This document shows positions 3,275 through 14,057 of a stretch of 64,000 nt of DNA, piece after piece. The notes beneath the pieces were generated by a model. It did not search any database. It saw only the letters and a list, made by a program, of their open reading frames with translations, and was not told the origin of the DNA. The translations under genes were made by a program, and so were the position numbers. How positions within the stretch are numbered: the first letter of the stretch is position 1; each line of letters opens with the position of its first letter. Source of the DNA: Escherichia coli (GTDB taxonomy: Bacteria > Pseudomonadota > Gammaproteobacteria > Enterobacterales > Enterobacteriaceae); the NCBI RefSeq assembly GCF_003334305.1, contig NZ_QOWS01000009.1. One strand, written 5' to 3'.

Positions 3275-6790
<3,516 letters not shown>

Positions 6791-6808
6791 TGGCGCTAAC
6801 CATGCGAG

Positions 6809-6912
6809 CGTGCCTGATGCGCTACGCTTATCAGGCCTACGAAAATCTTGCAATGTATTGAATTTTCATGATTTTGTAGGCCGGATAAGGCGTTCACGCC
6901 GCATCCGGCAAG
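6809..6912. repeat. REP/BIME-type extragenic palindromic repeats downstream of gyrB
   Basis: Two REP-like palindromes (gcctgatgcgctacgcttatcaggcctac and gtaggccggataaggcgttcacgccgcatccggc) in inverted orientation. Confidence 0.7.
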
Positions 6913-6923
6913 AAGCTATAAGA

Positions 6924-6953
6924 AAAGGGCGGAGATCATCTCCGCCCTTTTTA
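6924..6953 (+). terminator. Rho-independent terminator after the gyrB REP cluster
   Basis: Hairpin gggcggagatcatctccgccc followed by a T-run. Confidence 0.7.
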
Positions 6954-7029
6954 TTTCTGCAATCCGCAATTATCATCCCGCAAATCTATACTTTTTGGGT
7001 CAACACGTAACGCTTTACAGGTGATTATC

Positions 7030-8400: not shown

Positions 8401-9057
8401 TTATTGGTTTACTGCATATACAACCAGAAATTGCAGCGGTGCAGTAATGATGTCCAGCGTAACAGTCACTGGCAGTAATGCTGCGGAAACACCATCCGGA
8501 ATGCCTCTGGGTGAATAGTATTCATAAAATCGCACTTTAAACGGATGATAGAACGCCATCACCTTTGAGTAATCCATGTTTTTATTTTTCTCATGGATTG
8601 TGCCTTTTAGGTTTTCCAGTGACCTGGTACAGTGTTGAACACCACAGGCAAAACCATAATGCGTTGCCAGTGCCTTTTCTTCTTCGTTATTCCAGTAGTA
8701 GTAAAGCGATATTGTGCCGGTAAATTTCTTTTTCCCCGCATTTAAAACAAATCTTGCGTCATCGGCAACCTGAATATTGTGCCGGTTAAGTGCTGGATCA
8801 TTGAGCATCTTAACGATGTCATCGGCACCATCAGTGATAAGGTAATCCAGCGATTCCCCTACAAAAACATAGCCTTTTGTTCCATTACTATCTTTTGCCT
8901 GCGATAGCCCAGTGATGGTGTCTGACTGCGATTGATACTTTCCTGAACTACCCTTTGCGGTATGGGAAACCAGAGCATACGAGATACAGCCTGAAAGCAT
9001 CAGCGCCAGTGGGAATAAACCGGCAGCCTTAAAAAATCCCTTAAAATTCAACTTCAT
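8401..9057 (-). CDS. yidX: Putative lipoprotein YidX
   Basis: Track ORF 8401..9174; start moved to [24 protein letters not shown] (signal peptide plus lipobox), 218 aa. Confidence 0.85.
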
Positions 9058-9194
9058 GATTAATCCTTTAAACGAGTAGCTAAGCCGTTGAAAGCATACT
9101 CTTCTTTCCCTCCTGTTTAGCGCCTGATATCCCTTTTCAGATTTCTGCCCGACGCATGTCATTTTTTTATGCATTGTTCTTTTTGTGATCTAAA

Positions 9195-9269
9195 TTGTAG
9201 TACAATAATATAAGTTTGTACTACATTACGCACACGGCAAACGCGAACGTCATCACGCTGGTACTACAA
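9195..9269. promoter_or_regulatory. dgo promoter/operator: three copies of the TTGTAGTACAA-type DgoR operator motif
   Basis: ttgtagtacaa (9195-9205), ttgtactaca (9216-9225), tactacaa (9262-9269) directly upstream of dgoR. Confidence 0.6.
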
Positions 9270-9334
9270 AGTTGCCGCGTTATGCATCGATCGGGGTAAA
9301 GTAGAGAAGAACATACAGAGCACAAGGACTCTCC

Positions 9335-10024
9335 ATGACTCTCAATAAAACCGATCGCATTGTCATTACGCTGGGTAAACAGATCGTTCACGGCAAATAC
9401 GTACCTGGCTCGCCACTTCCGGCTGAGGCGGAGCTCTGTGAAGAGTTTGCAACCTCGCGCAACATCATCCGTGAGGTGTTCCGTTCGCTGATGGCGAAGC
9501 GGCTGATTGAAATGAAACGTTATCGCGGGGCGTTTGTGGCACCGCGTAACCAGTGGAATTACCTCGACACTGACGTACTGCAATGGGTGCTGGAAAACGA
9601 CTACGACCCACGGCTTATCAGTGCCATGAGCGAAGTGCGAAATCTGGTGGAACCGGCGATTGCCCGTTGGGCAGCAGAGCGCGCGACTTCCAGCGATCTG
9701 GCGCAGATTGAATCGGCGCTGAACGAGATGATTGCCAACAATCAGGACCGCGAAGCGTTTAACGAAGCGGATATTCGCTACCACGAGGCGGTGCTGCAGT
9801 CGGTACATAACCCGGTGTTACAGCAACTTAGCATTGCGATCAGTTCGTTGCAGCGGGCGGTTTTTGAACGAACCTGGATGGGCGATGAGGCCAACATGCC
9901 GCAAACGCTCCAGGAACATAAGGCGCTGTTCGATGCAATACGGCATCAGGACGGCGATGCGGCAGAGCAGGCGGCGCTTACCATGATCGCCAGCTCGACA
10001 CGAAGGTTAAAGGAAATCACATGA
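9335..10024 (+). CDS. dgoR: GntR/FadR-family repressor of D-galactonate catabolism
   Basis: 229-aa ORF, N-terminal wHTH, first gene of the dgo operon. Confidence 0.9.
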   Translation: MTLNKTDRIVITLGKQIVHGKYVPGSPLPAEAELCEEFATSRNIIREVFRSLMAKRLIEMKRYRGAFVAPRNQWNYLDTDVLQWVLENDYDPRLISAMSEVRNLVEPAIARWAAERATSSDLAQIESALNEMIANNQDREAFNEADIRYHEAVLQSVHNPVLQQLSIAISSLQRAVFERTWMGDEANMPQTLQEHKALFDAIRHQDGDAAEQAALTMIASSTRRLKEIT

Positions 10025-10899
10025 CAGCTCGCTACATCGCAATTGACTGGGGATCGACCAATCTGCGCGCCTGGCTTTATCAGGGCGACCACTGCCTGGA
10101 GAGCAGGCAATCAGAAGCAGGCGTCACGCGCCTGAACGGAAAATCTCCGGCTGCGGTGTTAGCAGAAGTCACGACCGACTGGCGTGAAGAAAATACGCCA
10201 GTGGTGATGGCAGGAATGGTCGGCAGCAATGTCGGCTGGAAAGTTGCTCCGTATTTATCTGTTCCTGCCCGTTTTTCGTCTATTGGCGAACAATTAACGT
10301 CTGTTGGCGACAATATCTGGATTATTCCCGGATTATGCGTCTCTCATGACGATAACCACAATGTGATGCGCGGCGAAGAAACACAATTGATCGGCGCGCG
10401 AGCTCTGGCTCCTTCCTCTCTTTATGTTATGCCCGGTACGCATTGCAAATGGGTGCAGGCCGATAGCCAGCAAATCAACGATTTTCGCACCGTGATGACC
10501 GGTGAATTACATCATTTACTGTTAAATCACTCATTGATTGGCGCAGGTTTGCCGCCGCAGGAAAACTCTGCCGATGCCTTCGCGGCTGGCCTTGAGCGCG
10601 GCCTTAATGCGCCCGCCATATTGCCGCAGCTTTTTGAAGTTCGCGCCTCGCATGTGCTGGGAACACTTCCCCGCGAACAGGTCAGCGAATTTCTCTCTGG
10701 TTTGTTGATTGGCGCAGAGGTTGCCAGTATGCGCGACTATGTGACCCATCAACACGCCATCACCCTTGTCGCCGGAACATCGCTGACCGCGCGCTACCAG
10801 CAAGCCTTTCAGGCGATGGGTTGCGACGTGACGGCGGTGGCGGGCGACACGGCATTTCAGGCTGGTATAAGGAGCATCGCTCATGCAGTGGCAAACTAA
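10021..10899 (+). CDS. dgoK: 2-dehydro-3-deoxygalactonokinase
   Basis: 292-aa ORF overlapping the dgoR stop; operon context. Confidence 0.9.
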   Translation: MTARYIAIDWGSTNLRAWLYQGDHCLESRQSEAGVTRLNGKSPAAVLAEVTTDWREENTPVVMAGMVGSNVGWKVAPYLSVPARFSSIGEQLTSVGDNIWIIPGLCVSHDDNHNVMRGEETQLIGARALAPSSLYVMPGTHCKWVQADSQQINDFRTVMTGELHHLLLNHSLIGAGLPPQENSADAFAAGLERGLNAPAILPQLFEVRASHVLGTLPREQVSEFLSGLLIGAEVASMRDYVTHQHAITLVAGTSLTARYQQAFQAMGCDVTAVAGDTAFQAGIRSIAHAVAN

Positions 10900-11500
10900 A
10901 CTTCCGCTGATCGCCATTTTGCGCGGCATTAAGCCCGACGAGGCGCTGGCGCATGTTGGCGCGGTGATTGACGCCGGGTTCGACGCGGTTGAAATCCCGC
11001 TGAATTCCCCACAATGGGAGCAAAGCATTCCCGCCATCGTTGATGCGTATGGCGACAAGGCGTTGATTGGCGCAGGTACGGTACTGAAACCTGAACAGGT
11101 CGATGCGCTCGCCAGGATGGGCTGTCAGCTCATCGTTACGCCCAATATCCATAGTGAAGTGATCCGCCGTGCGGTGGGCTACGGCATGACCGTCTGCCCC
11201 GGCTGCGCGACGGCGACCGAAGCCTTTACCGCGCTCGAAGCGGGCGCGCAGGCGCTGAAAATATTTCCGTCATCGGCTTTTGGTCCGCAATACATCAAAG
11301 CGTTAAAAGCGGTATTGCCATCGGACATCGCAGTCTTTGCCGTTGGCGGCGTGACGCCAGAAAACCTGGCGCAGTGGATAGACGCAGGTTGTGCTGGGGC
11401 GGGCTTAGGCAGCGATCTCTATCGCGCCGGGCAGTCCGTAGAACGCACCGCGCAGCAGGCAGCAGCATTTGTTAAGGCGTATCGAGAGGCAGTGCAATGA
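10883..11500 (+). CDS. dgoA: 2-dehydro-3-deoxy-6-phosphogalactonate aldolase
   Basis: 205-aa ORF overlapping the dgoK 3' end. Confidence 0.9.
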
Positions 11501-12645
11501 AAATCACCAAAATTACCACGTATCGTTTACCTCCCCGCTGGATGTTCCTGAAAATTGAAACCGATGAAGGCGTGGTCGGTTGGGGCGAGCCCGTGATTGA
11601 AGGCCGCGCCCGTACGGTGGAAGCGGCAGTTCACGAGCTGGGTGACTATTTGATTGGTCAGGATCCTTCGCGCATCAATGACTTATGGCAAGTGATGTAT
11701 CGCGCCGGATTTTATCGTGGCGGTCCAATCCTGATGAGCGCCATTGCCGGGATCGACCAGGCGTTATGGGATATCAAAGGCAAAGTGCTGAATGCGCCGG
11801 TCTGGCAACTGATGGGCGGCCTGGTTCGCGACAAAATTAAAGCCTACAGTTGGGTCGGCGGCGATCGTCCGGCGGATGTTATCGACGGCATTAAAACCCT
11901 GCGCGAAATCGGCTTCGATACCTTCAAACTGAACGGTTGTGAAGAACTGGGGCTAATTGATAACTCCCGCGCGGTAGATGCGGCAGTCAACACCGTGGCA
12001 CAAATTCGTGAAGCTTTTGGCAATCAGATTGAGTTTGGTCTTGATTTCCACGGTCGCGTCAGCGCGCCAATGGCGAAAGTGCTGATTAAAGAACTGGAGC
12101 CGTATCGCCCGCTGTTTATTGAAGAGCCGGTGCTGGCGGAACAAGCCGAATACTACCCGAAACTGGCGGCACAAACGCATATTCCACTGGCAGCGGGTGA
12201 GCGCATGTTCTCACGTTTCGATTTTAAACGCGTGCTGGAGGCAGGCGGTATTTCGATTCTGCAACCGGATCTCTCCCATGCAGGCGGTATTACCGAATGC
12301 TACAAAATTGCTGGAATGGCAGAAGCCTATGATGTGACCCTTGCGCCGCACTGTCCGCTCGGACCGATTGCACTGGCGGCTTGCCTGCATATCGACTTTG
12401 TTTCCTATAACGCGGTACTTCAGGAACAAAGTATGGGCATTCATTACAACAAAGGCGCGGAGTTACTCGACTTTGTGAAAAACAAAGAAGACTTCAGTAT
12501 GGTTGGCGGCTTCTTTAAACCGTTAACGAAACCGGGCTTAGGTGTGGAAATCGACGAAGCTAAAGTTATTGAGTTCAGTAAAAATGCCCCGGACTGGCGT
12601 AATCCGCTCTGGCGTCATGAAGATAACAGCGTAGCAGAGTGGTAA
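11497..12645 (+). CDS. dgoD: D-galactonate dehydratase (enolase superfamily)
   Basis: 382-aa [28 protein letters not shown]. Confidence 0.9.
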
Positions 12646-12764
12646 TTCCTGCCACGTAAACCCCTCATCGGGCACTAAAACAGCAATACAAAAATATAAC
12701 CCTCTGTAAATTACAGGGCATGGTGAGCGGCTTCGCTATGCCCAAAATCTGGAGAAAGCTCGCT

Positions 12765-14057
12765 ATGGATATTCCCGTTAATGCAGCAAAGCCGGGGCGT
12801 CGGCGTTATCTGACGCTGGTGATGATCTTTATTACGGTGGTCATTTGTTATGTTGACCGCGCTAACCTGGCCGTGGCTTCCGCCCATATTCAGGAAGAGT
12901 TCGGCATTACGAAAGCGGAAATGGGCTATGTATTTTCGGCCTTCGCCTGGCTTTATACGCTATGCCAGATCCCCGGCGGTTGGTTTTTAGATCGCGTAGG
13001 TTCTCGCGTGACTTATTTTATTGCGATATTTGGTTGGTCAGTGGCGACTTTATTCCAGGGCTTTGCCACGGGATTAATGTCATTAATTGGTCTGCGTGCG
13101 ATAACCGGTATTTTCGAAGCGCCCGCTTTCCCGACCAATAACCGGATGGTGACCAGCTGGTTCCCGGAACATGAACGCGCTTCCGCCGTTGGTTTTTATA
13201 CGTCTGGTCAGTTTGTCGGTCTGGCGTTTTTGACTCCGCTGCTGATCTGGATTCAGGAGATGTTGAGCTGGCACTGGGTGTTCATTGTCACTGGTGGTAT
13301 CGGCATTATCTGGTCGCTGATTTGGTTTAAGGTTTATCAGCCGCCGCGCCTGACCAAAGGTATCAGCAAAGCTGAACTGGATTACATTCGTGATGGCGGC
13401 GGTCTGGTGGATGGTGATGCGCCGGTGAAGAAAGAGGCGCGTCAGCCGTTAACAGCCAAAGACTGGAAACTGGTGTTCCATCGTAAACTGATCGGCGTTT
13501 ATCTTGGGCAATTTGCGGTGGCTTCTACACTGTGGTTTTTCTTAACCTGGTTCCCGAACTATTTAACCCAGGAAAAAGGAATCACGGCGCTGAAAGCAGG
13601 CTTTATGACCACGGTGCCATTCCTCGCGGCGTTTGTCGGCGTCCTGCTCTCTGGCTGGGTCGCGGATCTGCTGGTACGTAAGGGCTTTTCACTGGGCTTT
13701 GCGCGTAAAACGCCGATTATCTGCGGCTTGCTGATCTCCACCTGCATTATGGGCGCTAACTACACCAACGATCCGATGATGATTATGTGCCTGATGGCGC
13801 TGGCATTCTTCGGCAACGGTTTTGCTTCGATTACCTGGTCGCTGGTCTCTTCTCTGGCACCGATGCGCCTGATTGGTTTAACCGGCGGCGTGTTTAACTT
13901 CGCCGGTGGTCTGGGCGGCATCACCGTTCCGCTGGTGGTGGGGTACCTGGCGCAGGGTTACGGTTTCGCACCTGCACTGGTTTATATCTCCGCCGTCGCG
14001 TTGATTGGCGCGCTCTCTTATATCCTGCTGGTGGGCGATGTGAAGCGCGTTGGCTAA
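12765..14057 (+). CDS. dgoT: D-galactonate:H+ symporter (MFS)
   Basis: Track ORF 12720..14057; start set at [15 protein letters not shown] to give 430 aa; multi-TM MFS. Confidence 0.85.

Follow-up and report, generated by a model that had tools for sequence, protein, structure and literature searches.

A predicted third DgoR-type inverted repeat in the dgoRKADT regulatory region of Escherichia coli

Results

The dgo locus

The window (that is, the whole stretch of E. coli DNA that was analysed, 64,000 nucleotides in length) contains the regulatory region of dgoRKADT, the D-galactonate operon of E. coli, with the following genes:

8401–9057, minus strand: yidX, divergent neighbour bounding the regulatory region (RefSeq annotation mapped onto the window)
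9335–10024, plus strand: dgoR, GntR/FadR-family repressor, first gene of the operon (RefSeq annotation of RM8385; GntR/FadR-type family hits)
10021–14057, plus strand: dgoK-dgoA-dgoD-dgoT block, 3′ of dgoR
10021–10899, plus strand: dgoK (RefSeq name 2-dehydro-3-deoxygalactonokinase)
10883–11500, plus strand: dgoA (aldolase NCBIfam hit; RefSeq name)
11497–12645, plus strand: dgoD (dehydratase NCBIfam hit; RefSeq name)
12720–14057, plus strand: dgoT (D-galactonate transporter NCBIfam hit; RefSeq name)

RefSeq gene names were taken from E. coli O103 strain RM8385, which is 100% identical to the window over positions 9060–9340. Together with the family hits, these names and this identity bear out the initial annotation of the sequence 5′ of dgoR as the dgo promoter. 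The spacer between yidX and dgoR comprises 277 bp (9058–9334), and the open reading frame listed for yidX extends further upstream, to position 9174. The interval 9060–9340 was also used as a query against 5426 complete E. coli genomes, and 5425 of them gave matches. The product of dgoK (292 aa) gives no NCBIfam hit at E ≤ 1e-3, which appears to reflect a gap in the library, not a property of the gene. The arrangement of the region is already in the literature, with two DgoR sites experimentally defined and a third site predicted, and it works largely as published.

For about 400 of the 5425 complete genomes, coverage of the 9060–9340 query is less than 80%. E. coli O157:H7 EDL933 is without the entire dgoRKADT operon: its similarity to the window ends at about 9198, within the inverted repeat IR1 described below; the next intact gene is cbrA, and a 114-bp pseudogene remnant alone lies in between (window positions 9195–14057 vs. 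positions 2501–2750 of the EDL933 locus, L081). Strain RM8385 carries IS621 between gyrB and yidB, and the window is without IS621 there (positions 1892–2872 of the RM8385 locus, L082, vs. window positions 6790–7021); the strain that the window represents is therefore not RM8385.

The inducible promoter P1 and its CRP site

The regulatory region contains a D-galactonate-inducible, CRP-dependent promoter, P1, and two DgoR operators, IR1 and IR2:

9181–9202, plus strand: class II CRP site; left half TGTGA, 9184–9188; right half degenerate, TTGTA, 9195–9199
9195–9205, no strand assigned: IR1, TTGTAGTACAA, perfect palindrome, centre at −135 from the dgoR ATG
9216–9226, no strand assigned: IR2, TTGTACTACAT, one mismatch, centre at −114, 21 bp from IR1
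9222–9227, plus strand: −10 hexamer of P1, TACATT

From −160 to −140 relative to the dgoR start codon, Sort-Seq identified a CRP site of class II whose logo reads TGTGA (PMC6003448); this span maps to 9175–9195 of the window. The tgtga that had been annotated as a CRP-like half-site turns out to be the left half of this class II site (PMC6003448). The right half, TTGTA, overlaps IR1 and the −35 region, and is poor, with a 2/5 match. Activation at this promoter is reported to depend on cAMP-CRP, from Sort-Seq on cyaA cpdA cells given cAMP (PMC6003448). The 22-bp extent given here for the CRP site is the extent expected from the layout of the CRP consensus.

The wild-type −10 element was named as TACATT, within −120 to −100, by Belliveau et al. 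(PMC6003448). From the position of this hexamer and a CRP centre at −41.5, the P1 start site would be at about 9233–9235. The centre of the 22-bp CRP site is 9191.5, and, with a start site at about 9233, the CRP centre is at −41.5; that is, the geometry is that of a class II site, in agreement with PMC6003448. A scan for consensus sigma-70 promoters over 9050–9400 detected no promoter. P1 and the downstream promoter P2 (see below) are non-consensus, and the hexamer assignments therefore rest on the literature and on conservation.

Just 5′ of the CRP half-site lie a T-rich stretch and ATTGT (CATTGTTCTTTTTGTGA; 9170–9183), for which conservation is 0.7–0.97. They could be an UP-like element or part of a divergent yidX promoter.

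IR1 and IR2 are the published DgoR operators

DgoR is described as a repressor of the GntR/FadR family and is reported, from size exclusion, to be dimeric in solution (PMC11705089). The first two of the three repeats proposed as DgoR operators in the initial annotation are, base for base, the IR1 and IR2 of the Chaba laboratory (PMC11705089, PMC12288454), and their assignment as operators is upheld. The core of IR1 does not differ from CTAAATTGTAGTACAACAATAT, as published (PMC11705089), and the DgoR cis element, with IR1 perfect and IR2 carrying one mismatch, is that of Singh et al. (2019, J Bacteriol 201:e00281-18, as described in PMC11705089, PMC12288454). Within the promoter, IR1 overlaps the CRP right half and the −35 region, and IR2 overlaps the −10 element of P1.

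The published evidence for these operators is of several kinds. Sort-Seq places a DgoR-dependent repressor site from −140 to −110 relative to the start codon (PMC6003448), a span that maps to 9195–9225. DNA-affinity mass spectrometry showed that DgoR is pulled down on a −145 to −110 fragment, and the repressor signal is gone both in a dgoR deletion strain and in the presence of D-galactonate (PMC6003448). Binding of DgoR that is sensitive to D-galactonate has been reported for a fragment containing IR1 and IR2 (PMC6003448, PMC12288454), and a 55-nt EMSA probe that carries the two repeats but not the third site is sufficient for DgoR binding, for which the apparent KD is ~0.5 µM (PMC11705089, PMC12288454). 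DgoR binding depends on IR1 and IR2; that is, indifference of binding to mutation of these two repeats is contradicted by the cited literature.

The K-12 dgoRKADT operon (Singh et al., 2019, via PMC11705089, PMC12288454; Belliveau et al., 2018, PMC6003448) represents the same locus, with IR1, IR2, TGTGA, and TACATT identical and with matching positions. By comparison with the printed sequences, K-12 differs from the window at flanking bases only. Position 9207, beside IR1, is T in the window vs. C in K-12 (ACAATAATA for K-12 ACAACAATA), and position 9230, beside IR2, is G in the window vs. A in K-12 (TTACGC for K-12 TTACAC), a difference shared with Shigella flexneri. Both positions fall outside the 11-bp cores of the repeats as printed in the literature.

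The third repeat is a full palindrome

A third repeat is present downstream of IR2:

9259–9269, no strand assigned: predicted third DgoR-type inverted repeat, TGGTACTACAA, mismatch at position 2, centre at −71 from the dgoR ATG

Measured between centres, the third repeat is separated from IR2 by 43 bp and from IR1 by 64 bp. The initial annotation had described this copy as a half-site on the opposite strand, and that description does not hold: TGGTACTACAA is a full 11-bp palindrome, with a 10/11 match. In quality it equals IR2, and its central base, C, is the same as that of IR2. Since copies 2 and 3 have the same central base, the designation ‘opposite strand’ has no real meaning.

The presence of three DgoR repeats is not new, since the third site was predicted in 2015. 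In their S1 File, Suvorova, Korostelev and Gelfand (2015; PLoS One 10:e0132618, FadR sheet) predict three E. coli DgoR sites, CTAAATTGTAGTACAACAATA, TAAGTTTGTACTACATTACAC (IR2), and CACGCTGGTACTACAAAGTTG (the third site), and the same number of sites in each of E. fergusonii, Shigella, Salmonella, Klebsiella, Enterobacter 638, Cronobacter, and Serratia (PMC4494728). This list contains the same three E. coli sites as found here and is computational only; it does not include the spacing of the sites, their relation to two promoters, or the absence of any perfect third site (see below), and the present survey extends it to 79 species.

The experimental record for the third site differs from that for IR1 and IR2. 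In the literature examined, we found no experiment on DgoR binding at the third site; the experimental models in it, to 2025, including those for K-12, have two repeats only. The main texts of the Sort-Seq and Reg-Seq papers, which have base-pair resolution, report no repressor feature at −76 to −66 (PMC6003448 for Sort-Seq). Ireland et al. (Reg-Seq) state that no undiscovered sites are expected at dgoR, and the Reg-Seq tables list a ‘DgoR (right site)’, an entry that we could not match to one of the repeats.

The clustering of three repeats is not due to chance

The initial annotation placed three repeats within 75 bp upstream of dgoR, and all of the strings that it quoted are found in the sequence, at 9195–9205 (TTGTAGTACAA), 9216–9226 (TTGTACTACA(T)), 9262–9269 (TACTACAA), and 9184–9188 (TGTGA). 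These strings, including TGTGA, are located 66–151 bp 5′ of the dgoR ATG (9335), and the three repeats are located 66–140 bp 5′ of it. The centres of the three sites are at 9200, 9221, and 9264, corresponding to −135, −114, and −71 from the dgoR ATG, and, with 10.5 bp taken as one turn, the centre-to-centre spacings of 21, 43, and 64 bp amount to ~2.0, 4.1, and 6.1 turns, which puts the three sites on the same face of the helix.

Operators of the FadR subfamily follow a rule in which GT and AC boxes are separated by 3 nt, and DgoR is named among the regulators to which the rule applies (PMC4494728). Against the subfamily palindrome TTGTA-N-TACAA, IR1 matches at 11/11 positions, IR2 at 10/11, and the third site at 10/11; all three repeats have the palindrome pattern of DgoR operators and are located in the dgo promoter. 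The pattern TTGTASTACAW, with up to 1 mismatch, is matched at these three places only in the 64 kb. With a free central base (TTGTA-N-TACAA, 1 mismatch), there is one further, isolated match, at 40797, and one-mismatch sites of this kind are expected at ~1.5 per 64 kb by chance (shuffled sequence). The raw count is marginally unusual (6 strand-hits vs. 1.84 expected; at least 6 in 5 of 100 shuffles). Three sites within 75 bp were obtained in 0 of 5000 mononucleotide shuffles, and the Poisson expectation for a three-site cluster is ~2e-6 per window. We conclude that the clustering of the three repeats is not due to chance.

The isolated match at 40797–40807 (TTGTTTTACAA) lies between an adenine deaminase gene (38903–40669, minus strand) and a 444-aa open reading frame without a family hit. 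We considered this match as a member of the regulon and rejected it: it is isolated, is no more frequent than expected by chance, and is unconnected with galactonate.

A proposed downstream basal promoter, P2, next to the third repeat

Sort-Seq also detects a separate RNAP site, from −30 to −70, that is visible in glucose (PMC6003448). This site, taken here as the basal promoter P2, maps to 9265–9305, and glucose represents the repressing condition. Two elements in this span are candidates for promoter elements of P2:

9272–9277, plus strand: TTGCCG, tentative candidate −35 element of P2; TTG is conserved, and the hexamer is assigned here
9294–9303, plus strand: conserved block GGTAAAGTAG (conservation 0.934), containing TAAAGT (9297–9302), candidate −10 element of P2

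On the basis of conservation and the Sort-Seq RNAP span, TAAAGT probably is the P2 −10 element. The spacer between TTGCCG and TAAAGT would be 19 bp, which is long. The third repeat ends 2 bp before TTGCCG. In 75 of 79 species, the first base of the third repeat and that of the core GTAAAGT downstream of it are 37 bp apart. With these assignments, the third repeat would be at approximately −45 relative to the P2 start site.

The third repeat is conserved across Enterobacterales but is never perfect

A scan of contigs with one genome per species yielded 80 dgoR loci in Enterobacterales, of which 78 were scorable; with the window, these provide 79 promoters. Of these 79 species, 74 have a perfect IR1 palindrome, and 73 have an IR2 with exactly one mismatch. 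At the third site, 67 species show one mismatch and 10 show two, so that 77 of 79 have no more than two; the other 2 have more. The third site is separated from IR2 by 43 bp in 71 species, whereas 6 have 42 bp and 2 have 44 bp. TGTGA starts 11 bp 5′ of IR1 in 72 of 79 species.

Conservation was scored on a MAFFT alignment in 11-bp windows 5′ of the ATG. The scores rank IR1 highest (0.992), followed by the CRP block TTTTTGTGATC (0.969; the CRP window, 9181–9191, is conserved at 0.97, with 0.97–0.98 for the CRP element), IR2 (~0.947), the third site (0.915), and GGTAAAGTAG (~0.91–0.93). Spacers score 0.53–0.59, and the entire intergenic region scores 0.63; the spacer immediately 5′ of the third site scores 0.53, vs. 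0.915 at the third site itself.

Within the third site, conservation of the arms GTA and CAA is at least 0.9; positions 2 and 8 carry substitutions that vary by lineage, and the remaining positions are kept. Most genera have G or T, a mismatch, at position 8. In Escherichia, Salmonella, most Citrobacter, the Klebsiella oxytoca group, and a few others, it is position 2 that departs from the palindrome, with A or G. A perfect third site is present in 0 of 79 species. The combination of T at position 2 and A at position 8 is seen 0 times vs. ~12 times expected from the marginal frequencies. In the neighbour-joining dgo gene tree, the mismatch types are interleaved among Klebsiella-labelled and Raoultella-labelled loci, in a part of the tree that looks poorly resolved. 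The never-perfect property of the third site, which to our knowledge has not previously been pointed out, is no more than suggestive, since the species are phylogenetically related; it fits selection for a weak operator, that is, one of intermediate affinity.

Two further properties of the alignment bear on how conservation of the third site is to be read. Indels are rare throughout the region, and the length of every segment is as fixed as that of the IR2–third site segment across the 79 species; since all segments are equally indel-free, the fixed spacing of 43 bp is not specific evidence for a stereospecific interaction, and its use as evidence for looping is weakened. RNA structure in the leader was considered as a cause of the conservation and was rejected, since the 5′ UTR folds no better than shuffled sequences (z = 0.26) and the variable positions of the third site are not pairing partners in the palindrome.

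One locus in the survey (L056; CACSKA010000004.1) carries the label ‘Chryseobacterium sp. 18061’, yet encodes a DgoR that shares 90% identity with the E. coli protein, with an enterobacterial promoter layout. The assembly most likely is mislabelled or contaminated. This locus is one of the two with a degenerate third site (TCGTACTGCCA).

Discussion

A model for the dgo regulatory region

We propose that the dgo region operates as published, and that, in addition, the third repeat is a weak DgoR operator that tightens repression of P1 and damps P2. We assign a probability of about 0.7 to this reading, in which the part that concerns the third repeat comes from pattern, position, and conservation. 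In the steps of the model that are established by the literature, DgoR dimers in the absence of D-galactonate occupy IR1 and IR2, two helical turns apart, and there cover the −35 region with the CRP right half, and the −10 element, respectively; RNA polymerase and CRP are thereby excluded. D-galactonate frees DgoR from the DNA, and cAMP-CRP at TGTGA, centred at approximately −41.5, then activates transcription.

In the steps of the model that we add, the third repeat would be a genuine, weak DgoR operator at approximately +31 from the P1 start site, and P2 would supply DgoR under repressing conditions. The third site would be filled only at higher concentrations of DgoR, or with help from the upstream dimers on the same face of the helix, and the filled site would provide both tighter repression of P1 and damping of P2, that is, negative autoregulation of DgoR. 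Repression of P2 through the third site would be at most partial, since P2 is visibly active in wild-type cells in glucose (PMC6003448). As judged from sequence, the third repeat is most likely an auxiliary or autoregulatory operator of this weak kind.

A more ambitious version of the model, which we put forward tentatively and to which we give somewhat less than an even chance, is that the third repeat is a functional operator held sub-optimal by selection across Enterobacterales, coupling repression of P1 to homeostasis of P2 and DgoR, possibly through a short, same-face DgoR–DgoR bridge.

Alternative readings of the third repeat

The third repeat could instead function solely in looping or long-range cooperativity, with a dimer at the third site contacting the dimers at IR1 and IR2 over 43–64 bp to form a closed repression complex around the P1 start site, with no role in P2. 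Cooperative or looped binding was suggested in the initial annotation. The same-face phasing of the three sites, with spacings of 21, 43, and 64 bp, speaks for this reading, and the spacing of 43 ± 1 bp is kept in all 79 species while conservation of the spacer is just 0.53; in addition, a weak site that leans on strong neighbours fits the never-perfect pattern, and LldR, a related regulator of the FadR subfamily, has been proposed to loop (Aguilera, 2008, summarised in PMC8689689). However, DgoR is a dimer by size exclusion, with neither a tetramer nor bridging reported (PMC11705089), loops of 43–64 bp carry a high energy cost unless a protein bends the DNA, all other segments of the region are as free of indels as this one, and Sort-Seq reported no mutational signal at the third site (PMC6003448). 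We regard looping as the sole function of the site as rather unlikely. It is improbable, in our judgment, that the third site is kept for a reason other than DgoR, that is, as an upstream or −35-proximal part of P2 or as the target of another regulator, with its likeness to a DgoR operator a by-product or the trace of a decaying duplicate. Such a reading would account for the position of the site, which abuts the candidate −35 element of P2, for the presence of at least one mismatch in every species, and for the failure of Sort-Seq and Reg-Seq to report a repressor signature there, and one-mismatch sites do occur ~1.5 times per 64 kb by chance. Against it, a random one-mismatch site within 100 bp of IR2 is expected with a frequency of only ~2e-3, a decaying duplicate would not last at two or fewer mismatches in 77 of 79 species from dozens of genera, conservation is specific to the arms of the palindrome (GTA and CAA at 0.9 or higher, with positions 2 and 8 varying by lineage), and independent comparative genomics called the third site a DgoR site (PMC4494728).

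Improbable as well, finally, is that the site acts mainly as a roadblock, with DgoR at approximately +31 halting polymerases that escape from partially repressed P1. The third site is indeed 3′ of the P1 start expected at 9233–9235, in a leader of ~100 nt, and other repressors have operators at such positions, among them lac O1 (+11) and gal OI (+53.5); but a weak site for a dimeric winged helix-turn-helix (wHTH) repressor would make a poor roadblock, and the position of the P1 start on which the reading depends is itself deduced from the −10 element and CRP geometry.

Relation to other regulatory systems

The dgo region has partial parallels in other systems. LldR at lldPRD is, like DgoR, a FadR-type regulator of sugar or organic-acid metabolism encoded in its own operon. 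Its operators O1 and O2 flank the promoter with the same angular orientation and have been proposed to form a loop (Aguilera, 2008, in PMC8689689), and the DgoR sites likewise are located both 5′ and 3′ of the start site. DgoR differs from LldR in that DgoR is reported to be dimeric and looping is hypothetical; spacing at integral helical turns, of the type expected for looping, is nevertheless found at dgo (~2.0, 4.1, and 6.1 turns), with other segments of the region equally conserved in length. The LldR operators are much further apart than 43–64 bp, and LldR also activates transcription. General precedents for auxiliary operators are provided by lac O1/O3 and gal OE/OI.

NanR, a regulator of the GntR family, binds (GGTATA)3 cooperatively, with three repressor dimers at one promoter (PMC8012715). 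The NanR repeats are adjacent direct repeats, whereas DgoR has palindromic sites with spacings of 21 and 43 bp, and the cooperativity of NanR uses a 32-residue N-terminal extension that is absent from related regulators (PMC8012715). The comparison with lambda CI at OR3 and PRM, a weak third operator for negative autoregulation, is an analogy only. CI belongs to another protein family, and activation of its own promoter is not known for DgoR. As at OR3, a third site of lower affinity, beside the promoter that makes the repressor, would cap the concentration of repressor.

Implications

The importance of the finding is modest, and the third site itself has already been predicted. DgoR serves as a model for allostery in the GntR/FadR family, and adaptation in gut E. 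coli and Salmonella repeatedly affects dgoR and its promoter. The ‘gold standard’ quantitative promoter models provided by Sort-Seq and Reg-Seq, and the affinities from EMSA, include two operators only. If the more ambitious reading is correct, the two-operator model of a model GntR/FadR regulator would be incomplete. If the third site binds DgoR, then current models, 55-nt probes, and biosensor designs of the lactate and galactonate type would miss an element that sets leakiness and the basal level of repressor.
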